A DNA stretch of 64,000 nt from Acidimicrobiia bacterium (GCA_015488325.1 WFOA01000028.1:38309-102308), one strand, 5' to 3'; shown: positions 29,698-41,832, numbered from the stretch's first letter. Notes: generated by a model not told the origin, from the letters alone. Translations and numbers: made by a program.

Positions 29698-30285
29698 ATG
29701 CCCGTGGCCGTGGTCGTCCCCGTCAAATCCTTCTCCCTCGCCAAGGGGAGGCTGGCCGACGTGTTCTCGGCCGAGGTCCGGGCGTCGGTCGGTCGGGCGC
29801 TGGCCGACCGGGTGGTGACCGTCGTCGCCGAAGCGGGAGCGGAGCCGCTGGTCGTCGGCGGAGACGAAGGGGTGCTCGGCTGGGCTCGGGATCGTGGGAT
29901 CCGGGCGACCGTCGCCCCTCCAGGGCTGGACGCCGCCGCCGGGATGGTCACCACCCTCACGGCGGGACGCCCCTGGGCGGTACTCCACGCCGATCTGCCG
30001 CTGCTCTCCGCCGCAGACCTCGTCCCCGCCTTCGATGTCGTCGCCGGCGGCGGCTACGTGCTGGCCCCCTCCTCCGACGGCGGGACGGCTCTCCTCGGCG
30101 GCCACGGAACCGTCGCCTTCTCCTACGGCCCGGCCAGCTTCCACCGCCATCTGGCCGCCCTCGCCGACCGGGACCCCCTCGTGCTGGTCCGCACCGGCCT
30201 CCTCCTCGACCTCGACTCGCCCGCCGACCTCACCGCCGCGCTCCGCCACCCCCGGGGTCGATGGTTGGCCGAGTTCCTCCCCTAG
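29698..30285 (+). CDS. cofC: 2-phospho-L-lactate/PEP guanylyltransferase (F420 biosynthesis)
   Basis: 195 aa, MPVAVVVPVKSFSLAKGRLADV...GGYVLAPSSDGGTALLG matches the CofC/FbiD MobA-like family. Confidence 0.75.
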   Translation: MPVAVVVPVKSFSLAKGRLADVFSAEVRASVGRALADRVVTVVAEAGAEPLVVGGDEGVLGWARDRGIRATVAPPGLDAAAGMVTTLTAGRPWAVLHADLPLLSAADLVPAFDVVAGGGYVLAPSSDGGTALLGGHGTVAFSYGPASFHRHLAALADRDPLVLVRTGLLLDLDSPADLTAALRHPRGRWLAEFLP

Positions 30286-30298
30286 CCTTCCGTCTCCC

Positions 30299-31057
30299 AT
30301 GACCAACCTGTACGCCGACGTCCGCCGAGACGACCCGACCCTGCCCACGCCGTCCCGGGCCCTCACCATCGGAGCCCACCCCGACGACGCCGAATTCGGT
30401 GCGGGAGGCACCCTGGCACGATGGGCCCGTCAGGGCTGCGAAGTGTCGATGCTGGTGGTGACCGACGGGTCGAAAGGCACCTGGGATCCCGACCTCGACC
30501 CCGCCGCACTCGTCCGGCGGCGACGCATCGAACAGCACGAGGCCGCCCGCACCCTCGGAGCGACCGGCGAGGTCGTGATGCTCGACCACATCGACGGCGA
30601 GCTGGAGAACACCTTGGCGCTGCGGGAAGAGTTGTGCGGATGGATCCGCCGGCTCCGCCCCGACGTTGTCCTCACCCACGACCCTTGGCGGCGGTACATG
30701 CTCCACCCCGACCACCGGGCGGCCGGGATGGCGGCGGTGGACGCCGTCGTCGCCGCCCGGGACCATCTGTTCTTCCCCCACCAGCTCACGGACGGGATCC
30801 GAAAGCATCGACCCGACGCGCTCTTGTTGTGGTCGGCCGACGAACCGGATCATTGGGAGGACATCACCGACACCTTCGACACGAAGATCGAGGCGCTGCT
30901 CTGTCATTCCACCCAGGGCCAGACGACGATGGGCGACGCCCACGACGATCCCGACGCTCGGGAGGCGTTCGTCCGGCGGATCCGGGAATGGGCGGCCCGG
31001 ACGGGCGACCCCGCCGGGCTGGCGTTGGCGGAGAGCTTCAAACTGGTCCGCCCCTGA
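30299..31057 (+). CDS. PIG-L/LmbE-family N-acetylglucosaminyl deacetylase (MshB/Mca-like)
   Basis: Internal ATG (MTNLYADV...). ALTIGAHPDDAEFGAGGTLA and HPDH motifs are present. Confidence 0.8.
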   Translation: MTNLYADVRRDDPTLPTPSRALTIGAHPDDAEFGAGGTLARWARQGCEVSMLVVTDGSKGTWDPDLDPAALVRRRRIEQHEAARTLGATGEVVMLDHIDGELENTLALREELCGWIRRLRPDVVLTHDPWRRYMLHPDHRAAGMAAVDAVVAARDHLFFPHQLTDGIRKHRPDALLLWSADEPDHWEDITDTFDTKIEALLCHSTQGQTTMGDAHDDPDAREAFVRRIREWAARTGDPAGLALAESFKLVRP

Positions 31058-31133
31058 CCCGCCGTCGGCGGACGCCGGGACGTCCGCGGCGCCGAGGCCC
31101 CTTCGAGCCCACCGCCCGCCTACGATCGGACCG

Positions 31134-32405
31134 ATGCGGTTCGACCCTTCGGTCCTCGTCCCCGACCCCGAGCACCGACGGATCATCCTCGACATCTTGG
31201 GTGCCGCACTCGAAGCGGTCGACCCGGGTCGGGCCGTCGCCGGCCGGCTCCGCCTCGCCGACGGCCGTCTCCTCGTCGACGGCGACGGACTCGCCGTTCC
31301 CGGCCGAGTCGACATCCTCGCCATCGGCAAGGCCGCCCCGGCGATGGCCCGGGCGGCCGCCGCGGTCCTCGGGCCACACACGGCCAGGGTCCTCGTCATC
31401 TCCGACCACACGGAGGACGTCCCCGCCGGGGGCCGCCTGATCGTCGCCGACCATCCCTACCCGGGGGACCGCAGCCTGGCCGCCGGGGAAGCGGCCCTGG
31501 CGTTCGCCGCCGACGTCGCCCCGTCCGACCGCCTGCTCGTCCTCGTCTCAGGAGGCGGGTCGGCCCTGGTCGAACGGCCCGCCGACGACCTCACCCTCCA
31601 CGACCTCGCCGCCACCCATCGGGCGCTCATGGATCGGGGCGTCCCCATCCACGACCTCAACCTCGTCCGCCGTCACCTCTCCCGGGTGAAGAACGGTGGC
31701 ATCGCCCGGGCCCACGGGCGTCCCCTCGTCACCCTCCTCATCTCCGACGTCGTCGACGGCCCATCCTCCGATATCGCCTCCGGCCCGACCCTGGCCGACG
31801 GCACCACCCCGGCCGACGCCCTCGCCGTCGTCGAACGCAGCGAAGCCGCCGTCCCCGAGGAGGTGGTCGCCTACCTGGCCTCCGCTCCGCCTCCGGAACC
31901 CGTGGACCCGGGTCCGTGGCGGGTCGTCGCCGACGGGACCCGGGCGGCAGAGGCCGCCGCCGCCCGGGCACGGGAGCTCGAACTGGAGGCGACCGTCGCC
32001 ACCACCAGCCTCCGGGGTGAGGCCCGCGTCGAAGGGCCCCGGGTCTGCCGGGACCCGGCCCCGGGGGTCACCGTGTTCGCCGGCGAAACCACCGTGCACG
32101 TCGTCGGAGACGGTGTTGGCGGACGCAACCAGGAGGCCGCACTGGCGGCGGCCGTCGAGCTCGAAGGCTCGTCGACGATCTTCGCCGCCTTCGGCACCGA
32201 CGGCGTCGACGGGCCGACCGACGCCGCCGGGGCGATCGTCGACGGGGCCACCGTCGCCCGGGGCCGGGACGCCGGACTCGACCCGCTCCGGTGCCTCGCC
32301 CGCAACGACTCCCACCGGTTCCTGCGAGCGTCCGGTGACCTCCTGGTGACCGGCCCCACCGGAACCAACGTCGGCGACCTGTGGCTGGTGTGGCACCCCG
32401 ATTGA
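31134..32405 (+). CDS. glycerate kinase (glycerate 2-kinase, GckA/MOFRL family)
   Basis: Internal ATG (MRFDPSV...) gives 423 aa with DUF4147 plus a MOFRL domain (…LLVLVSGGGSALVE…GTDGVDGPTDAAGA…). Confidence 0.8.
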   Translation: MRFDPSVLVPDPEHRRIILDILGAALEAVDPGRAVAGRLRLADGRLLVDGDGLAVPGRVDILAIGKAAPAMARAAAAVLGPHTARVLVISDHTEDVPAGGRLIVADHPYPGDRSLAAGEAALAFAADVAPSDRLLVLVSGGGSALVERPADDLTLHDLAATHRALMDRGVPIHDLNLVRRHLSRVKNGGIARAHGRPLVTLLISDVVDGPSSDIASGPTLADGTTPADALAVVERSEAAVPEEVVAYLASAPPPEPVDPGPWRVVADGTRAAEAAAARARELELEATVATTSLRGEARVEGPRVCRDPAPGVTVFAGETTVHVVGDGVGGRNQEAALAAAVELEGSSTIFAAFGTDGVDGPTDAAGAIVDGATVARGRDAGLDPLRCLARNDSHRFLRASGDLLVTGPTGTNVGDLWLVWHPD

Positions 32406-32423
32406 GGTCGTAAGCTCTCGGTC

Positions 32424-33458
32424 ATGGACCTCTCCCCCGCCCTTCGCTGGCGACCACCGTCGGACTGGCTCCGGGTCACCGTGATCGAATCCCACACCGG
32501 CGGCGAACCGTTCCGGGTCGTCGTGGACGGCCTCCCCGACATCCCCGGAGACACGGTCCTCGAGCGCCGCCGCTACGCCACGGAGCACCTCGACACCCTG
32601 CGCAGGGCACTGATGTGGGAACCGCGCGGCCACGCCGACATGTACGGAGGCTGGCTCGGGCCCCCCACCGGGCACGGAAGCGACCTGTCCGTCCTGTTCT
32701 GCCACAACGAAGGGTTCTCGACGATGTGCGGCCACGGGATCATCGCCCTCGCCAAAGTGGTCTTCGACACCGGCATCGTGGCGGGCCACGACGGAGAGAA
32801 CGTCCTGCGTGTCGACACCCCGGCCGGGACGGTGACCGCCACGGCGACCATCACCGAAGGAGTGTGCACCGCCGTCCGGTTCCGCAACGTCGGCTCCTTC
32901 GCCGTCGACCTGGACGCCTCCGTCACTCTCCCCGGCCTCGGGGAGCTCCGCTACGACCTGGCCTTCGGCGGGGCGTTCTACGCCTACGTGGACGCCCAGG
33001 AGGCGGGGGTGGACCTCGGCGACGTCGCCGAGCTGGTCGCCAAGGGACGGGCCATCAAACAGGCGATCGCCGGATCCAGACCCATCGTCCATCCGACCGA
33101 GCCGGACCTGGGGTTCCTGTACGGGGTGATCTTCACCGGCCACCCCGAGGATCCCACCCGCCACAGCCGCAACGTCTGCGTCTTCGCCGACGGTGAGGTG
33201 GACCGCTCGCCCACCGGCACCGGGGTGAGCGGCCGCCTGGCCCTCCTCCACGCCCGAGGCGAGCTCGACGTCGGAACCCCGATCGCCGTCGAAAGCATCG
33301 TGGGAAGCGTCTTCGTGGGGACGGTCGTCGGCACCTGCCGGGTCGGCGACGTCGAGGCGGTGATCCCCGAGATCGCCGGCACCGCTCACATCGTGGGACG
33401 CTCCGAGCTGTGGATCGATCCCTCCGACCCCCTCAACCCCGGGTTCCTGTTGCGCTGA
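32424..33458 (+). CDS. proline racemase-family enzyme (Cys/Thr type: probable trans-3-hydroxy-L-proline dehydratase or Hyp epimerase-like)
   Basis: 344 aa with SHTGGEP, first catalytic Cys in MCGHG, and second catalytic position DRSPTGTG (Thr, not Cys). Confidence 0.8.
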   Translation: MDLSPALRWRPPSDWLRVTVIESHTGGEPFRVVVDGLPDIPGDTVLERRRYATEHLDTLRRALMWEPRGHADMYGGWLGPPTGHGSDLSVLFCHNEGFSTMCGHGIIALAKVVFDTGIVAGHDGENVLRVDTPAGTVTATATITEGVCTAVRFRNVGSFAVDLDASVTLPGLGELRYDLAFGGAFYAYVDAQEAGVDLGDVAELVAKGRAIKQAIAGSRPIVHPTEPDLGFLYGVIFTGHPEDPTRHSRNVCVFADGEVDRSPTGTGVSGRLALLHARGELDVGTPIAVESIVGSVFVGTVVGTCRVGDVEAVIPEIAGTAHIVGRSELWIDPSDPLNPGFLLR

Positions 33459-33488: not shown

Positions 33489-34052
33489 TCACACCCGAAT
33501 CGGCCCTCGCCGCAGCACCCTGAGCCGACCCTCCACCACCTCCACCACCGTCGACGACTGCCCTCCCGGAGACCGGCCGGGCAGGTAGACGGCCACACCA
33601 TCGCCGAACAGCTCGCGGGCGGCGACGTCGTCGAGCACCGGATCCTCCCCGGACCGGTTGGCGCTGGTCACCGCCAGCGGCCCAGCGGCCTCCAGCAGCT
33701 CCCGGCACCGGGGATGGTCGGGCACCCGCACCCCCACCGTGCCCGCGTTCGGGTCCCCGAACTCGCGGGGCACGCCGGGGCGGCGGGGACAGACCAACGT
33801 GAGGGCACCCGGCCAGTACCGGACCGCCAGGTCCCTCGCCGCGTCCGGCAGCATCACCAGCTCCTCGGCCTGGGCGACGTCGGCGACCAGGATCGGCAGG
33901 GGACGGTCGGCGGGCCTTCCCTTCAGCTCGAACACCTTCGTCACCGCCCCACGGTCGGTCGGATCGACCGCCAGGCCGTACACGGTGTCGGTGGGGACCC
34001 CCACCACCTCGCCGGCCTCGAGTGCCCGCACGGCGTCGTCCAACCTGCTCAT
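33489..34052 (-). CDS. tsaC: L-threonylcarbamoyladenylate synthase (YrdC/Sua5-domain, TsaC-like)
   Basis: Internal ATG (MSRLDDAVRALEAGEVVGVPTDTVYGLAVD...) gives 187 aa. The start overlaps the prmC stop (ATGA). Confidence 0.8.
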   Translation of the reverse strand: MSRLDDAVRALEAGEVVGVPTDTVYGLAVDPTDRGAVTKVFELKGRPADRPLPILVADVAQAEELVMLPDAARDLAVRYWPGALTLVCPRRPGVPREFGDPNAGTVGVRVPDHPRCRELLEAAGPLAVTSANRSGEDPVLDDVAARELFGDGVAVYLPGRSPGGQSSTVVEVVEGRLRVLRRGPIRV

Positions 34053-34849
34053 CGCCGCAACACCAGGAACCGTTCCCGACCGGCGTAGTCGAACCGGACC
34101 TCCGCCTTCCAGCCGGCCCCGGCCGCCCGAGTCTGCAGGGCCGCCCCCTGGGTCTCGCCGATCTCGAAGATCGCCACCCCTCTCGGGCTCAGCCACCCGT
34201 CGAGCCCGTCGACCAGCCTCTCCAAGAGCTCGGTGCCGCGGGGCCCTGCCACCAGGGCCCGACGTGGTTCCCGCTTCACGTCCACCGCGAGGCCGTCCCA
34301 GTCGCCGGCGGCGACGTACGGCGGGTTGGAGACGAGGAGGTCCACGCTCCGGGCCAGGGACCCACACAGCGCGTCGTAGAGGTCGCCCCGGCGAAGCTGC
34401 ACCTCGACCCCGAGCCGCCTCACGTTGAGCTCCGCCACCTCCAGGGCCGGAGCCGACACGTCGGTGGCGACGACCCGGGCAGCGGGAAACGACCGGGCGA
34501 GGGCCACGGCCAGCGCTCCGCTCCCCGTCCCGATGTCGACGATCACCCGAGGGTCTGCCGCCTCGGCCACCGCCAACTCCCAGAGCTGTTCGGTCTCGGG
34601 CCGCGGCACCAAGACCCTGTCGTCCACCACCAGCTCGAAGGGGCCGAACGGTGCGGTCCCTTCGAGGTACTGGAGGGGGGTGCCGGCGAGCCGCCGGGAC
34701 TCCAGTTCCCGCACGCGGCTCACCTGCGGGCCCGTCAGTTCACGGTCGGGATCGAGACGGGTCACGACCACCCCGAGCACGGCACCGACGAGACGCTTCG
34801 CCTCGTGGCGGGGCAGCCGGGACCGGACCACCAACTCTCGAACCTTCAT
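34049..34849 (-). CDS. prmC: release-factor glutamine N5-methyltransferase
   Basis: 3' part of track ORF 34049..36172. Start at MKVRELVV. Motifs DIGTGSGALAV and NPPY are present. Confidence 0.85.
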   Translation of the reverse strand: MKVRELVVRSRLPRHEAKRLVGAVLGVVVTRLDPDRELTGPQVSRVRELESRRLAGTPLQYLEGTAPFGPFELVVDDRVLVPRPETEQLWELAVAEAADPRVIVDIGTGSGALAVALARSFPAARVVATDVSAPALEVAELNVRRLGVEVQLRRGDLYDALCGSLARSVDLLVSNPPYVAAGDWDGLAVDVKREPRRALVAGPRGTELLERLVDGLDGWLSPRGVAIFEIGETQGAALQTRAAGAGWKAEVRFDYAGRERFLVLRR

Positions 34850-34903
34850 GCCTGCATCGTGCCAGAACTCAAGAACCAACGGCGACTGCCGACCGGTGAC
34901 CCC

Positions 34904-35287
34904 ATGGAGGCCAAACCGCGCGTCCTCGTCGCCGACGACGCCCCGACCGTCACCCTCCTCGTGGAACGAGGCTTGGAGGCGAACGGATGGGATGTCGTCG
35001 TCACCAACGACGGATACGAAGCCTTCCAGCTCGGCCTGGACGGCGACTTCGACCTGGCCTTCGTCGACCATCTGATGCCGTCGATGCTCGGCGCCGAGAT
35101 CGTCACACGCTGGCAGGAAGCCGACGTCGACACGCCCGTCGTCATGCTCAGCGGCATGGACGACGACGAAACGATCGCCGACTGCCTGGCGGCCGGGGCC
35201 GTCGACTTCATGCGGAAACCCTTCAACATCCGCGAGCTGGTCATGCGGGCCCGCCTCCACGCCCGCCGCAGCCCCGCGGTCGCTTGA
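34904..35287 (+). CDS. single-domain response regulator (CheY-like receiver)
   Basis: 127 aa, MEAKPRVLVADDAP...LAFVDHLMP...VVMLSGMDD...MRKPF. All receiver active-site positions are present. Confidence 0.8.
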   Translation: MEAKPRVLVADDAPTVTLLVERGLEANGWDVVVTNDGYEAFQLGLDGDFDLAFVDHLMPSMLGAEIVTRWQEADVDTPVVMLSGMDDDETIADCLAAGAVDFMRKPFNIRELVMRARLHARRSPAVA

Positions 35288-35371
35288 TCGGCCGCCTCGA
35301 CGGCCGACGGGATCCTCCGACCCGGCGTCGGGATTCGACATGCATGCCCAACCCCATCCTGAGGTCCGCCC

Positions 35372-36520
35372 ATGAACTGGGCCGAGGCCCTGGCGTGGAT
35401 CACCGGGGCGAGTGCGATCACGCTCTCGATCGTCGCGTTCGTCGTCAAGGTGATCCACCATTTCGTCCTGCGCCGGAGAGGGCTTCGGCGCGCCCTCTAC
35501 GTGCATGCCGTCGGGGAGATCATCGCCCACGGCGCCATCCCCTGGGAGAAGGTCTCCGGATGGACTCGGGATCCGGTGTTCCGTGAGGTCGTCTTCGAAT
35601 ACGTCGGCACCGTCGGCGGGAAAGAACGCACCCATCTCAACGACCTCATCGACGTTCTCGGCCTGCGGGAGTTCCTCGTACGCGACACCCGCTCGATCTG
35701 GACCCGGAAACGACTCCGGGCAGTCGCCCAGCTCGCCCACCTGGCCGAACCGGCCCTCGAACTCCTCTTCGTGGAACGTCTCCGCGACCGGGTCCCCGAA
35801 GTTCGCCTCCACGCCGCCAAAGGACTGGCCCGTTGCGGAAACCCTGACGTGGTGCCCCGACTCCTCGATATGACCGAGACCGAGTCCCCCTGGATGGTCG
35901 CTCGACTCAGCGACATCCTCGTCGCCTTCGGATCCGACGCCGTGCCCTACATCGTCGACTGGGTCCGCGAGGCCCCGCCGCAAGGTCACCGGCCCGAAGC
36001 CTTGGAGACGGCCGCTCGCACCCTCGGCGGGATCGGCGACCGGTCGGCCTGCCCCGTCCTGGTGGAACTGTTGGACGCCTCCGACCCCATGGTGAGGACC
36101 GCCGCTGCCGGGGCCCTGGGCCGGGCTGGCACCCCCGACGCCGTCGAACCCCTCATCGACGCGCTGCGACACGACGACGACTGGCGGGTACGGGCCAAAG
36201 CCGCCTCCTCCCTCGGCGAGCTCTCCGACCCCCGGGCAACCGGGCCTCTCGCTGAAGCCCTACGGGATCCGGCGTGGCGGGTACGCCAGGACGCCGCGGC
36301 GGCGCTGGTCTCGGTACCCAACGGGATCCACGCCCTCATCGAAGCCGTCACCGGCACCGACCCCTTCGCCCGGGACGCCGCCCTGTACCAGCTCGGCATC
36401 TCCGGAGTCATCGACCGGGCTCGTCGACGCATCGAATCCGGGGAAGACGCCGAAGACGACCGGTACCTCCTCCGGGTCGTCGCCGCGACCGAACCGCCGA
36501 CGGAGGCGAAGGCGTCATGA
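35372..36520 (+). CDS. membrane-anchored HEAT-repeat (PBS-lyase HEAT-like) protein
   Basis: 382 aa. N-terminal TM helix, then at least 5 repeats of the form D/NP.VR..AA.ALG..G.P.AV.PLI.AL. The stop overlaps the next start (ATGA). Confidence 0.75.
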   Translation: MNWAEALAWITGASAITLSIVAFVVKVIHHFVLRRRGLRRALYVHAVGEIIAHGAIPWEKVSGWTRDPVFREVVFEYVGTVGGKERTHLNDLIDVLGLREFLVRDTRSIWTRKRLRAVAQLAHLAEPALELLFVERLRDRVPEVRLHAAKGLARCGNPDVVPRLLDMTETESPWMVARLSDILVAFGSDAVPYIVDWVREAPPQGHRPEALETAARTLGGIGDRSACPVLVELLDASDPMVRTAAAGALGRAGTPDAVEPLIDALRHDDDWRVRAKAASSLGELSDPRATGPLAEALRDPAWRVRQDAAAALVSVPNGIHALIEAVTGTDPFARDAALYQLGISGVIDRARRRIESGEDAEDDRYLLRVVAATEPPTEAKAS

Positions 36521-37908
36521 TCTTCGGATTCATCACCGTCGCCGTCCTCCTCTACGTGATCGCCATCGAGGTGCAGCTCCTGGCCGTCGGGCTCCTCTCC
36601 CTCCGACAGCTCCGCCACGACCGCTACCTGGCCCGATACGGGGGCCTCGACGAGATGCTGTACTCCGACACCACCCCACCCGTCTCGATCATCGTGCCCG
36701 CCTACAACGAAGAAGCGGGCATCGTCGAAGCCGTCAGGTCGATGACGATGCTGCGGTATCCACGTTTCGAAGTGGTCGTCGTCAACGACGGCAGCAAAGA
36801 CGACACCCTCGGAGTGCTCGTCGACGCCTTCCGGCTCATCGAAGTGACCGTCCCCTACCGGCGCGACCTCGAAACCGAACCCATCCGGGGCATCTACCGT
36901 TCCACCCTGCCGCTCCCCGTCACCGTCGTCGACAAACACAACGGCGGCAAGACCGACGCCTTGAACGCCGGCGTCAACGTCGCCCGCTACCCCTACGTGA
37001 TGCTCACCGACGCCGATGTGGTCCTCGACGGCGAGAGCCTGCTCCGGGCGATGCGTCACGTCGTCGAAGATCGGGAACGTACCGTCGCCGTCGGCGGGAA
37101 CATCCGCCCGATCAACGGCTGTGTCGTCAACCGGGGACGGGTGGTGGAGACCCACCTTCCGAAACGAGCCCTCGAACGGGTCCAGGTGCTCGAATACATC
37201 CGGTCCTTCATCGCGGCCCGGCCCGGATGGTCGCGCCTCGGTGCCCTCGTCCTCGTCTCCGGCGCCTTCGGCATCTACCGCCGGGACGCCCTCGCCGAAG
37301 TCGGTGGCTTCCGGAAAGGCCACCTCGGCGAAGACCTCGACCTCACCATGCGGCTCCACCGGCTGATGAGGGAGAAGCGTCGGCCCTACCGGATCGTCTT
37401 CGCCGCCGACGCGATCGCCTGGACCGAGGTCCCCACCACCCGGAAGGTGCTGCGAACCCAGCGGATCCGGTGGCACAAGGGCCTGCGGATGGTGGTGCGG
37501 GACTTCCGCGACGTCCTGTTCAACCCCCGCTACGGCACGTTGGGGATGCTCGGATGGCCCGCCTACGTCGCCTTCGAGTTCGTCGCTCCCCTGGTGGAGT
37601 TCGTCGGATGGCTGGTCATCCCCGTCGCCTGGCTCACCGGCTATCTCGACCTCTCCGTCGCCGTTCCCCTCGCCGTCGCCGCCTTCTTCCTCGGCGCCAT
37701 CAACTCTCTCATCGCCCTCTTCTTCGACGAGGCCTACGGCTATTTCACCTCACCCCTGGAAGCGGTGAGGCTCCTGTGGCTCACCTACCTGGAGAACCTG
37801 GGGCTTCGCCAGCAAACCGTCGTGTGGCGGGTACTGGCCATGTTGGGGCCGACGGCGTCGTCGTGGGGCGACATGCAGCGGCGGGGCGTGAACAACCTGG
37901 CGTCGTGA
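36517..37908 (+). CDS. family-2 processive beta-glycosyltransferase (PgaC/IcaA/cellulose-synthase-like polysaccharide synthase)
   Basis: 463 aa. N-terminal TM, GT-A domain with VVNDGSKDDT, DxD (LTDAD), QRIRW and C-terminal TM helices. Confidence 0.85.
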   Translation: MIFGFITVAVLLYVIAIEVQLLAVGLLSLRQLRHDRYLARYGGLDEMLYSDTTPPVSIIVPAYNEEAGIVEAVRSMTMLRYPRFEVVVVNDGSKDDTLGVLVDAFRLIEVTVPYRRDLETEPIRGIYRSTLPLPVTVVDKHNGGKTDALNAGVNVARYPYVMLTDADVVLDGESLLRAMRHVVEDRERTVAVGGNIRPINGCVVNRGRVVETHLPKRALERVQVLEYIRSFIAARPGWSRLGALVLVSGAFGIYRRDALAEVGGFRKGHLGEDLDLTMRLHRLMREKRRPYRIVFAADAIAWTEVPTTRKVLRTQRIRWHKGLRMVVRDFRDVLFNPRYGTLGMLGWPAYVAFEFVAPLVEFVGWLVIPVAWLTGYLDLSVAVPLAVAAFFLGAINSLIALFFDEAYGYFTSPLEAVRLLWLTYLENLGLRQQTVVWRVLAMLGPTASSWGDMQRRGVNNLAS

Positions 37909-37912
37909 GGGT

Positions 37913-38983
37913 TCACGCCTCTCCGGCGAGACGCCGGGCCTGATCTTCGGCAGCGAGGGCCTCGACGAAGGGGTCGAGGTCACCGTCGAGGACCTGGTCG
38001 AGACGTCGGATCGTCAACCCGATCCGATGGTCGGTCACCCGGTTCTCCCGAAAGTTGTAGGTCCGGATCTTCTCGGCCCGTTCACCGGTCCCCACCTGCG
38101 CCCGCCGCTCACCCGCCTGTTCGGCGTGACGGCGTTCCTGTTCGAGCTGGAACAGCCGGGCACGGAGGATACGGAACGCCTTCTCCCGATTCTGGAGCTG
38201 GCTCTTCTCGTCCTGGCAGGTGACGACCAGACCCGTGGGCAGGTGGGTGAGCCGCACCGCCGAATCGGTGGTGTTCACCGACTGCCCGCCCGGACCCGAC
38301 GAGCGGAACACGTCGACCCGCACGTCGCCGGGGTCGATCTCGACCTCGACCTCCTCGGCCTCCGGCAGCACCGCCACCGTCGCCGTCGACGTGTGGATCC
38401 GGCCCTGGGATTCCGTCTTCGGCACACGCTGGACACGGTGGACCCCGGCCTCGTACTTGAAGCGGGAATACGCGCCCCTCCCGTGGACCGCCACCGTCAC
38501 CTTCGAGTAGCCACCCGTCTCGCTGGGCGCCGCCTCCATCGGCTCCACCTCCAGCCCGTGACGTTCCGCGTAGCGTTCGTACATCCGCAGCAGGTCCCCC
38601 GCCCACAACGCCGCCTCGTCGCCACCGGCGGCAGCCCGGATCTCGAGGATGACGTCCTTCGAGTCGTTCGGGTCCCGTGGTGCCAGCGCCGCCTGGAGCT
38701 CGGCCTCGAGGGCGTCGGCCTCCGCCTTCTTCTCCTCCGCCAGCCGGGACAGGTCTCCGGCGAGGGCCGGGTCGGCGGCGGCCAGCTCGAGGGCTTCACG
38801 CCGGTCGATGTCGGCCCGTCTCCACGCTTCGTACAGGTCGACGATCTCCTTCAGCTCGGCGTGGCGTCGTCCCAGGTCGGCCAGACGGGCCGGGTCCTCC
38901 GCCGCCGCCTCCGCCATCTCCTTCTCCACCTCCTCGAGGCGGGCGACCAGCTCGTCGAGGCGGGCGATCAGCCGCTCGTCCAT
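37913..38983 (-). CDS. prfA: peptide chain release factor 1
   Basis: Internal ATG ([11 protein letters not shown]...) gives 356 aa. PxT-like region and [16 protein letters not shown] (GGQ) are present. Confidence 0.92.
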
Positions 38984-39921
38984 CAGCGGGCCCGGGCAGC
39001 GACGGCGGCCTCGGGGAGGGGTCCACGGCGTTCGATCTCGGCCACCTGGTCCTCGTCGAGGGCCGACAGCAGGCTCGTCACCGCCACTTCGATCATGTCC
39101 GGCTCGGGGACACCGGTGGTGAGCCGCTGCAGCCACAGACCGGGCGCCGCCAAGAACCTGCCCAGCCGGTCCGATTGGCGGGTCCCCGAGAACTTCAACA
39201 GCTCGTAGGCGAGTCCGGCGATCACCGGGATGAGGACGATCCGGCTGACGACGAGCATCACCCAGCCGGGCCGTCCCAGCAGGGAGAACACGAGGATCGA
39301 GAAGACCACGACGATCAGCAGGAAGCTCGTCCCGCACCGGGGATGTTCGGGCCGGTAGCGCCGCACCGACTCCACCGAGAGCGGCTCCCCGGCCTCGAAG
39401 GCGTGGATGGCCATGTGCTCGGCGCCGTGGTACTGGAAGACCCGTCTGATCTCTTCGGAACGGCCGATCGCCCAGATGTAGCCGACGAAGAGGGCCAGCC
39501 TCACCAGGCCTTCGATCCCGTTGAACACCAGCGTCGACTCCCCGGCGGCGACCCGGGCGACGGCGGCCGGGATCAGGATGAACAGCCCGGCGAACAGCAC
39601 GAGGGCGATGGTCATCGACCCGGCGATCTGACGGCCGGTCAGTGGCTCTTCGTCTTCGTCCGCCGCCTTCTGGGCCGACCAGGACAGGGCCCGGAAGCCG
39701 AGGGCGAGGGACTCGCCCAACACCAGCATCCCCCGGATGAACGGCACCCGGGCGAGACGCGACCGGGAGCTGAGGCGCGGAAGCGGATGCCGGACGGCCT
39801 CGATGGACCCGCCAGGTCGCCTCACGGCCACCGCCCAGGCGTTCGGCGCCCGCATCATCACCCCTTCGATGACCGCCTGGCCGCCGACGGAGAACGCGGC
39901 GTCGTCAGCGGCCATGGACAC
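38983..39921 (-). CDS. DUF1385-domain membrane protein
   Basis: 312 aa, ...[20 protein letters not shown]... 1-nt start/stop overlap with prfA. Confidence 0.7.
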
Positions 39922-39990
39922 TCGTCGTGTTCGGGGCCGGTGGACGTCGACGGGACCGAGGGAACGCCTCGGAGACGGGGATCGCCGAGC

Positions 39991-40257
39991 TCACTCCGCG
40001 TCGGGCGTCTCGCCCGTCTCCTGAGAGGCTTTCTGGGCTCGTTTCGACTTCGGGACCGACCCGCCGTAGCGCTTCTGGAAGCGTTCGACCCGGCCGCCCG
40101 AGTCGACCAGCTTCTGTTTGCCCGTGTAGAAGGGATGGCACTCGTTGCACAGTTCCACGTGCAGCTCACCGGGCTTGGTGGACCGAGTGACGAAGGTGTT
40201 GCCGCACGAGCAGACCACCGTCGTCTCGTCGTAGGTCGGATGGATCTCGGTTCTCAC
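39991..40257 (-). CDS. rpmE: 50S ribosomal protein L31
   Basis: 88 aa, [27 protein letters not shown]. Confidence 0.9.
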
Positions 40258-40275
40258 GTTCTCTCCTTCAGACCC

Positions 40276-41832
40276 TCAACTCGTGCTCTTGGCCACCTCG
40301 GCCAGGAACTCGGCGTTGGACTTGGTGTTCTTCAGCCGGTCGATGAGCAGCTCGAGGGCCGCACCCGGCTCCAACGACAAGAGGACCCGGCGCAGCTTCC
40401 AGACCTGTTGCAGCTCCTGTCGGTCGAACAGCAACTCTTCCCGGCGTGTTCCCGAGGCCTCGATGTCGATGGCAGGGTAGATGCGTTTGTCGGCGAGGCG
40501 GCGGTCGAGGCGCAGCTCCATGTTGCCGGTGCCTTTGAACTCTTCGAAGATGACCTCGTCCATCTTCGAGCCCGTCTCGACGAGGGCCGTCCCGAGGATC
40601 GTGAGGCTGCCGCCCTCCTCGATGTTCCGGGCGGCACCGAAGAACCGTTTCGGCGGGTACAGCGCCGTCGAGTCCACACCGCCGGACAGGATCCTGCCCG
40701 ACGCCGGGGTCGCCAGGTTGTGGGCCCGGGCCAGGCGGGTGATCGAATCGAGGAGGATCACCACGTCGGCGCCCATCTCCACCAGCCGTTTCGCCCGTTC
40801 GATGGCCAGTTCGGAGACCTGGGTGTGCTCCTCGGCCGGACGGTCGAACGTCGAGTAGATCGTCTCACCCTTCACCGAACGCTGCATGTCGGTGACCTCT
40901 TCGGGACGTTCGTCCACCAGCACCACCATCAGGTAGCACTCGGGGTTGTTGGCGGTGATCGCCTGGGCGATCTCCTTCAGGACCGTCGTCTTGCCCGCCT
41001 TCGGGGGTGACACGATCAGCCCCCGCTGGCCTTTGCCGATGGGAGCGATCAGGTCGATGATCCTGGTGAGCACACCGTTGGGTTTGCCTTCGACTTCGAG
41101 TCGCAGCCGCTCGTCGGGAAACAGCGGGGTGAGCTTCTCGAACCGGGGACGTTTCAACGCCTCCTCGGTGCTCATCCCGTTCACCGAGTCGATGCGGATC
41201 AGGGCGGGGAACTTCTCCTGGGAGCGGGGCGGACGGATCGGCCCCGACACGAGGTCGCCTTTGCGCAGTCCGAACTTGCGAACCTGGCCCGCGGAGACGT
41301 AGACGTCCTTTTCGCCGGGGAGATACCCGGTGACCCGAAGGAACCCGTAGCCCTCGGGGAGGATGTCGAGGAGACCTTCGCGGACCTCCAGCTCCCCCTC
41401 GGGGATGAACTCTTGGTTGCCGCCGCCGCGGCCCCGACGCCGTTTCCGCCGCCCACCCCCTTGACCTTGGCGGTCCCCGCCTTGACGCTGTTCGCCCTGC
41501 TGACGCTCCTGGGTGGAGGCCTCGCCACCGTCGGCCGCGCCCTCGGCTGCCTCCTCGGATCCCTCGCCGGACGACGTCGCCTCCTCCGACTGGCCTCCGT
41601 CCTGCTGCTGGTCGGTCGACGACGTATCGGCCCCGTCGGAACGGGGGGTGGCGGCCGGGAGTTCGATCGTCTCCGCGGCGCCGTCACCGTCGACGGACGG
41701 CGCCGCGCCGGACTCCATGATCGCCGAGATGAGTTTGGCTTTCTGGAGACCTTCGGTCTCGATACCGACCGCCTCTGCGATGGCCCTGAGCTCGCCGATC
41801 GACTTGGCTTGGAGTTGGGCTCTGGTGCTCAT
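40276..41832 (-). CDS. rho: transcription termination factor Rho (with about 150-aa acidic/RGG-rich N-terminal insertion domain)
   Basis: 518 aa. Walker A PKAGKTT, Q- and R-loops, and an N-terminal insertion [16 protein letters not shown]...[14 protein letters not shown]. Confidence 0.92.

Follow-up and report, generated by a model that had tools for sequence, protein, structure and literature searches.

A CheY-like receiver, a HEAT-repeat protein, and a membrane GT2 synthase: a widespread candidate module for exopolysaccharide synthesis

We analyzed a 64,000-nucleotide stretch of DNA from an Acidimicrobiia bacterium (GCA_015488325.1, WFOA01000028.1:38309-102308), which we call the window; its GC content is 69%, and all window coordinates refer to the whole stretch. 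Three genes on the + strand (34904-37908) encode a stand-alone CheY-like receiver (REC), a membrane-anchored protein with HEAT repeats, and a membrane glycosyltransferase of family 2 (GT2). From the sequences and structural models, we consider it fairly probable that the trio is one functional unit, namely a synthase-dependent exopolysaccharide (EPS) machine with a HEAT subunit and a phosphorelay input. The main new evidence is conservation across at least 15 phyla. Judging from sequence, models, and comparative genomics, the system is both widespread and coherent.

Synthase-dependent exopolysaccharides, such as cellulose, poly-beta-1,6-N-acetylglucosamine (PNAG), alginate, Pel, and hyaluronan, underlie biofilms. 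To our knowledge, the synthases that have been studied well in bacteria are all controlled by a dedicated co-subunit and by cyclic di-GMP (c-di-GMP). In curated family models and open-access papers, we did not come across any account of a polysaccharide synthase with a HEAT-repeat partner, and none of the three proteins falls under an NCBIfam equivalog. The original prediction for this DNA, that a HEAT partner with a receiver is an undescribed architecture, agrees with this search.

To see how widely the system occurs, we scanned one genome per GTDB species with an alignment of the GT2, which brought up at least 589 relatives. Identity is 37-65% for the best 80, which come from at least 15 phyla. 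Among them, the Actinomycetota are represented by Acidimicrobiia, Thermoleophilia, Rubrobacter, and Gaiella. Other carriers belong to the Deinococcota (Thermus and Calidithermus), the Alphaproteobacteria (Caulobacterales, Mesorhizobium, and Sphingomonadales), the Gammaproteobacteria (Stenotrophomonas and Rheinheimera), and the Bacillota (Bacillus, Anoxybacillus, Paenibacillus, and Clostridia). There are also carriers in the Spirochaetota, Myxococcota, Bdellovibrionota, Bacteroidota, Rhodothermales, Ignavibacteria, Acidobacteriota, Gemmatimonadota, Verrucomicrobiota, Elusimicrobia, and Aquificota.

We then considered a set of 87 loci from at least 15 phyla. For 77 of these, enough upstream DNA was available to look for the HEAT gene, using a hidden Markov model (HMM) search with a profile of the HEAT partner. 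The partner was present in 75 of the 77 loci. In 71 loci, a co-directional open reading frame (ORF) with a nearly full-length match ends about 50 nt or less from the start of the GT2 gene, and in 4 loci the partner lies within the GT2 ORF (confirmed with Pfam). As for the two misses, one (locus L053) is an artifact of masked bases and the other (L052) is a 1389-aa fusion ORF. Two checks had been proposed along with the original prediction: whether HEAT orthologues adjoin GT2 genes elsewhere, and whether the neighborhood is conserved across Actinobacteria. Both came out in its favor, and the conservation reaches far beyond the Actinobacteria.

Fusions of the two proteins are common. We searched 1.84 billion cluster representatives exhaustively with HMMER and found 1,199 family members at E-values of up to 1e-30. 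Among the best 149 representatives of 50%-identity clusters, 52 have the HEAT partner region in the same polypeptide, as spot-checked with Pfam, and one of these 52 (P0405) has the reverse order, with the HEAT region after the GT2. The single-chain fusions, which include P0447 and P0478 as well as P0405, are about 940-1540 aa long. Examples among our loci (given as locus:coordinates) are L049:4456-7299 (947 aa), L070:4456-7299, L040:4468-7371, L059:2815-7434, and L052:3244-7413; those in L052 and L059 have an extra N-terminal region of 450-590 aa. In the fusions, the chain that joins the solenoid to GT-A contains two hydrophobic segments, so both of these domains are expected to stay cytoplasmic.

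In the window, the stop codon of the HEAT gene overlaps the start codon of the GT2 gene (gtcATGAtc, 36517-36520), as had been reported. Because of the near-universal adjacency, the translational coupling, and the repeated fusion in both orders, there is strong comparative evidence that the HEAT protein and the GT2 form one complex. Gene order across these genomes also establishes that the genetic coupling of the two is obligate.

The GT2 gene (36517-37908, +) encodes 463 amino acids and matches PF13641, PF00535, and PF13632. It has an N-terminal transmembrane (TM) helix (36523-36606), a GT-A domain (36676-37479) that includes the motifs DxD (37009-37017), GED (37327-37335), and QRIRW (37459-37473), and a C-terminal TM bundle (37525-37845). 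In an alignment of 48 homologues, D91, D165-A-D167, G271-E-D273, and Q315-R-I-R-W319 are invariant, and so is W450-G-x-M-x-R-x-G457, which follows the last TM helix (37864-37887). This last motif may resemble the WGTR/SWG loop motif of hyaluronan synthases (HAS) and chitin synthases (Chs), which would hint at a substrate of the N-acetylglucosamine (GlcNAc) type. The AlphaFold2 model, which was built on the 48 homologues, has a pLDDT of 88.6 and a pTM of 0.89. It comprises a long N-terminal TM helix (residues 2-41), the GT-A domain, the interface helix with QRIRW (309-329), and a C-terminal helical bundle (337-443). Pfam, the motifs, and the model all agree with the original view of this protein as a GT2 with the hallmarks of a processive synthase (DxD, QRIRW, and flanking TM helices).

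When we compared the model to the PDB with Foldseek, Xenopus XlHAS1 and Chlorella-virus Cv-HAS were the leading matches, followed by the cellulose synthase BcsA and by fungal and oomycete chitin synthases. The top 40 matches are HAS, BcsA, Chs (Chs1 and Chs2), and CesA, with E-values of 1e-16 to 1e-10. The family profile of the GT2 gives long alignments only to Chlorella-virus HAS (positions 56-411) and BcsA (249-395), while its matches to single-transfer GT2s are restricted to the first ~50 residues of GT-A. The best curated family is TIGR03937 (PgaC_IcaA), which matches residues 135-404 with E = 2.7e-38, but at 132 bits the match falls far short of the equivalog cut-off of 422.3. The score for BcsA (TIGR03030) is 46 bits against a cut-off of 699.1, and CelA, NodC, and other curated families score far under PgaC_IcaA. 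The GT2 and E. coli PgaC have 30% identity over 270 aa of the GT-A core, and PgaC lacks two insertions that are conserved in our family (residues ~106-133 and ~199-222). The Pfam scan found no MshEN domain on the GT2, and neither PilZ nor BcsB in the GT2 or its neighbors. If the GT2 had grouped with non-processive, lipid-linked glycosyltransferases, this would have counted against the original prediction; instead, its fold matches are HAS, BcsA, and Chs, its long profile alignments are to HAS and BcsA, and its best family is PgaC/IcaA. By sequence and model, the GT2 is a membrane-integrated member of the class of processive synthases. Because its scores are far below the curated cut-offs, we place it in none of the named families.

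The HEAT gene (35372-36520, +) encodes 382 amino acids. HEAT_2 (PF13646) matches the protein in 5 stretches (E = 1.4e-47, 160 bits), and HEAT_PBS (PF03130, 59.6 bits) and HEAT are also over threshold. There is one hydrophobic helix near the N terminus, which is the predicted TM helix (residues ~5-27, 35384-35452), and then a basic juxtamembrane stretch (RRRGLRR). In the AlphaFold2 model (pLDDT 89.2), the TM helix and a juxtamembrane extension form a 50-residue N-terminal helix. After it comes a continuous alpha-solenoid of ~10 helical hairpins (residues ~58-373, 35543-36490). Pfam and the model thus bear out the description of a protein with one N-terminal TM helix and PBS-lyase-type HEAT repeats. 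Of 60 separate orthologues, 58 have a TM-like segment at the N terminus followed by K/R residues. The positive-inside rule, applied to this topology, puts the solenoid in the cytoplasm, where the GT-A catalytic domain also lies.

The nearest folds to the HEAT protein are alphaRep, importin-alpha, and the A subunit of PP2A, which are generic protein-binding scaffolds. Across phyla, only G83, R114, and the HEAT consensus are conserved, and with so little conserved beyond the consensus, no binding surface can be named. We considered and rejected an identity as a bilin lyase or NblB: the scores for CpcE, CpcF, and NblB are 40-58 bits, as compared to equivalog cut-offs of 220-330. This similarity is, by these scores, that of the common repeat consensus only.

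The receiver gene (34904-35287, +) encodes 127 amino acids, and PF00072 (residues 7-115, E = 1e-21) is its only domain, with no output domain. The phospho-acceptor residues are complete in the translation (D11/D12, D55, S83, F102, and K105-P106), and the predicted phospho-acceptor is D55 (codon at 35066-35068). The protein is, as first described, a stand-alone CheY-like receiver. An ORF with REC on the same strand precedes the HEAT gene by no more than 2.7 kb in 50 of 65 loci. Since it is missing from the other 15, we consider the receiver to be a frequent component and not an obligatory one. In Thermus, Bdellovibrio, Gemmatimonadales, Gaiella, and others (for example, L020, L025, L029, and L087), REC directly adjoins the start of the HEAT gene or overlaps it. 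A larger protein, Hpt-REC-(GGDEF or degenerate GGDEF)-REC, is encoded upstream in Bacillota, Acidobacteriota, and Myxococcota, and its terminal REC ends at the HEAT start (L071:3252-4925, L038:3062-4906, L041:2710-4644, L045:3211-4779, and L062:3308-4879). Of the domains in these Hpt-REC-REC proteins, the terminal receiver is apparently the one conserved as the output element. Where the upstream protein has GGDEF, some lineages may add a local c-di-GMP signal. Histidine kinases adjoin the module in Thermus, Mesorhizobium, and Bacillus (L029, L036, and L071).

How might these three proteins work together? The HEAT protein and the GT2 are co-translated from their overlapping genes, and the HEAT protein would serve the synthase as an obligate subunit on the cytoplasmic side. 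Its solenoid might dock onto the synthase's cytoplasmic face and act as both an activating or gating subunit and an adaptor. The phosphorylated receiver could then bind either the solenoid or the synthase and so switch polymerization on or off after translation. Such a phosphorelay input would replace or complement c-di-GMP, and it would fill the role that c-di-GMP with PilZ, PgaD, or MshEN has elsewhere. A monoderm host, as the Acidimicrobiia-like host appears to be, should need no added export component. The product would be a secreted beta-linked homopolymer, and our default guess is that it is made of GlcNAc or glucose (Glc).

Several observations weigh against this reading. Processivity, the product, the contact between HEAT protein and GT2, and phosphorylation of the receiver are all inferred from sequences or models. 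No histidine kinase, GGDEF protein, other EPS gene, or large accessory protein is found in the 64-kb window; the window's version is the minimal trio of the system. No catalytic or ligand motif, and no conserved surface outside the repeats, is apparent in the HEAT partner across phyla. Also, the 15 of 65 loci that have no REC beside the HEAT-GT2 pair include close relatives from Acidimicrobiia (L005 and L012). A bolder version of the idea is that the trio founds a large, unrecognized class of EPS systems (~1,200 clusters at 50% identity, with E-values of up to 1e-30, in at least 15 phyla), in which a membrane-tethered HEAT solenoid is an integral part of the synthase and a phosphorylated CheY-like receiver, not c-di-GMP, gates the enzyme directly. 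We offer this version tentatively and would not yet bet on it.

We weighed the trio as a single EPS machine against four other explanations. Spurious ORFs are common in high-GC DNA, so the three genes could be an annotation artifact or could be adjacent by chance, and this is the sole point in favor of that idea. But the codon-position GC fits the frames, the Pfam E-values range from 1e-21 to 1e-47, the trio is kept in differing genomic contexts, and HEAT-GT2 gene fusions exist. The counts of adjacency and fusion already refute this explanation, and we give it a negligible probability. A more serious alternative, though we think it rather unlikely, is that the GT2 is a divergent PNAG synthase of the PgaC/IcaA type, with the HEAT protein replacing PgaD or IcaD, in which case both the polymer and the type of machine would be familiar ones. 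The best curated match is to this family, the GT-A core is 30% identical to that of E. coli PgaC, and the TPR and beta-barrel porin of diderm loci (described below) is analogous to PgaA. Yet the family score is less than a third of its cut-off, the two insertions are absent in PgaC, and the closest structures are those of HAS, BcsA, and Chs. Where PgaC has the catalytic motif TED (ITED in the alignment), the window's GT2 has GED. Furthermore, the flanks have neither a small protein like PgaD or IcaD nor a CE4/PgaB/IcaB deacetylase (the PIG-L protein upstream is of a different family).

It is also conceivable that there is no secreted polymer, and that the GT2 makes short oligosaccharides, as NodC does, or glycosylates lipids, with the HEAT protein as an unrelated scaffold. 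One N-terminal TM helix with a C-terminal bundle is a NodC-like topology; there are weak matches to Glyco_transf_21 and NodC; and PcManGT, a membrane GT2 with no known polymerization, is among the fold matches. However, matches to single-transfer GT2s cover just the first 50 residues of GT-A, while QRIRW and the interface helix with its TM bundle fit the channel-forming synthases. Diderm operons encode TPR/beta-barrel export proteins, which are sensible only for a secreted polymer, and this makes the idea unlikely; we regard it as less probable than the PNAG synthase. Alternatively, the HEAT protein could be a localization or assembly factor (a tether to the pole or septum, or a stabilizer) and the receiver could act elsewhere, for instance as a phosphate sink. 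HEAT solenoids are generic scaffolds, this one has no conserved surface past the repeat consensus, and some loci have the pair with no adjacent receiver. Against this, in many phyla the translation of the HEAT gene is coupled to that of a receiver gene, and where the receiver belongs to a larger phosphorelay protein, it invariably forms the end of that protein, directly next to the HEAT gene. The frequency of REC, 77%, is in our judgment far above chance, with the chance level being an estimate and not a computed value. We rate this explanation about as doubtful as the PNAG synthase. Overall, a synthase with a HEAT subunit and a phosphorelay input remains our preferred account of the trio.

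Other lineages have additional genes beside the module. About 20 diderm loci have a TPR protein with a YaiO-type outer-membrane barrel in the operon (for example, L065:7356-8732, L036:3042-4793, L022:3496-4827, and L030:3781-4791). By analogy to PgaA, BcsC, or NfrA, it seems to serve the system as its export porin, so export is implied in these loci. A membrane protein of the sulfatase family (PF00884, similar to LtaS and phosphoethanolamine transferases) lies beside the module in Stenotrophomonas (L065:8745-11126) and Bdellovibrio (L087:1450-3816). It could decorate the polymer, much as BcsG decorates cellulose. Conserved proteins of 735-1086 aa with no match in Pfam are encoded in 12 monoderm loci from Bacillota and Rubrobacter (including L071:7380-10634, L053:7358-10618, L050:1788-4838, L023:5618-7921, and L039:2595-4802). 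Proteins of ~350-400 aa, also with no match in Pfam, lie beside the module in five loci from different lineages (including L006:5242-6300, L009:2946-4040, L041:7266-8411, and L058:7227-8432).

Returning to the window, re-reading the sequence gave the same three co-directional genes, with the same coordinates and features, as the original prediction. The periodicity of GC by codon position backs exactly these three frames. Four public contigs have an identical locus, and independent gene calls on them yield the same three genes (metagenome-assembled genomes GCA_015492815.1 and GCA_015484725.1). For every gene of the locus, the nearest relatives are in metagenome-assembled genomes of Acidimicrobiia. 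The gap between the receiver and HEAT genes is indeed 84 nt (35288-35371), and it includes a Shine-Dalgarno-like site (GAGG) 9 nt before the ATG. A scan of this spacer found no terminator-like site, and its folding is not stabler than that of shuffled sequences (z = +1.23), so co-transcription of the receiver and HEAT genes is plausible. The presumed promoter region is the 54 nt (34850-34903) between the receiver's start and the start of the divergent gene prmC (34049-34849, -). We scanned these 54 nt for a sigma-70-like consensus and found none, which is uninformative for an actinobacterial genome with 69% GC. Downstream, the stop codon of the GT2 (TGA, 37906-37908) is separated by just 4 nt (37909-37912) from the stop codon (37913-37915) of the convergent gene prfA (37913-38983, -), so that a terminator could not fit between them. 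A transcript running past the end of either gene would be antisense to its neighbor.

The flanking genes on the minus strand are, in order, thrC, rho, rpmE, DUF1385, and prfA, then the module, then prmC and sua5. The module thus parts prfA from prmC-sua5, which are normally neighbors (window 33489-34849 and 37913-41832). The setting beside prmC and prfA had been taken to suggest a conserved surface-polymer function, but this inference did not hold up. The location is uninformative: it is merely synteny, with the same arrangement of HEAT-GT2 and prfA kept in nine Acidimicrobiia loci. In close relatives within the Acidimicrobiia, the HEAT-GT2 pair is convergent with prfA whether or not the receiver is present. 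The same trio layout occurs in L006 and L007 (GCA_011682695.1, JAACED010000014.1). NCBI's protein label for these is Gammaproteobacteria, yet the GT2 is 62% identical to the window's, so either the bin may be mislabeled or the module may have been transferred. Upstream of the module, the window also encodes a PIG-L family deacetylase, a DUF4147/MOFRL (glycerate-kinase-like) protein, and a proline racemase-family protein (29894-33458, +). None of the three recurs beside the module in related loci, and they are probably unrelated to it. For this reason, we did not count the PIG-L gene (~4 kb upstream) as part of the module.

If the proposed machine is real, then it has a new mode of regulation for polymer secretion, by a HEAT solenoid subunit and a phosphorelay input; in the bolder version, it would link two-component signaling to glycan secretion post-translationally, at the enzyme. 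It would also imply an unrecognized matrix polymer in many environmental bacteria and in some that can be cultivated, given its spread across Bacillus, Clostridia, Thermus, Caulobacterales, Mesorhizobium, Stenotrophomonas, Bdellovibrio, spirochaetes, and uncultured Acidimicrobiia. Cultured carriers (Bacillus infantis, Anoxybacillus kestanbolensis, Paenibacillus ferrarius, Thermus tenuipuniceus, Stenotrophomonas acidaminiphila, Mesorhizobium sp. WSM3859, and Asticcacaulis) and natural single-chain fusions make the system directly testable, and the fusions are ready targets for structure determination.

Among characterized proteins, PgaC is the closest relative by sequence (30% identity over 270 aa). 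Like PgaCD and IcaAD, the system has a GT2 of ~440-460 aa with TM helices flanking GT-A, a second membrane protein encoded directly beside the synthase, and, in diderms, a TPR and beta-barrel porin. PgaD and IcaD are small and have two TM helices, whereas the HEAT protein has 382 aa, crosses the membrane once, and carries a large cytoplasmic solenoid; its gene is upstream of the synthase instead of downstream. The interface of PgaC and PgaD binds c-di-GMP, whereas the input here is a phospho-receiver, and there is no deacetylase. BcsA-BcsB is similar in having a processive GT2, a QxxRW interface helix, a TM channel, and a cytoplasmic regulatory module. Instead of PilZ and the periplasmic BcsB, our system has REC and a HEAT solenoid, which may be separate or fused. 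Hyaluronan and chitin synthases are the best fold matches and have the GED/GDD-type catalytic motif in common with our GT2, but the sequences are only 13-18% identical, and HAS works without a partner subunit.

NfrB-NfrA, xagABCD, and sfz of iron oxidizers are poorly characterized EPS systems that also combine a GT2 with TPR/beta-barrel proteins, and diderm loci of our system have a barrel like YaiO or NfrA. NfrB differs in having a C-terminal MshEN domain for c-di-GMP, which is absent here. Kinship to E. coli NfrB was considered and rejected: BLASTP aligns only residues 6-97 of the query (E = 6e-4). We also rejected YaiP/YaiO/YaiS of E. coli as the counterpart, as YaiP is merely 29% identical over the GT-A core and belongs to a different family. 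The polymer of Xanthomonas xagABCD is uncharacterized. XagB-like proteins of iron oxidizers have ~690 aa, an MshEN-type domain, and a BcsB-like partner, and the 120 proteins most similar to the Stenotrophomonas member include none from Xanthomonas. On this indirect evidence, xagABCD is probably a different system.

In Alg8-Alg44, as here, a GT2 synthase depends on a dedicated regulatory element, although the element and its input differ. The nearest functional analogues of the HEAT partner are eukaryotic. In yeast Chs3-Chs4 (Skt5) and plant CesA-CSI1, a membrane-associated alpha-solenoid (Sel1/TPR-like or armadillo) sits on the cytoplasmic side of the synthase and activates or guides it. Those systems have no receiver input, and their proteins are unrelated to ours in sequence, so any resemblance would be convergent.

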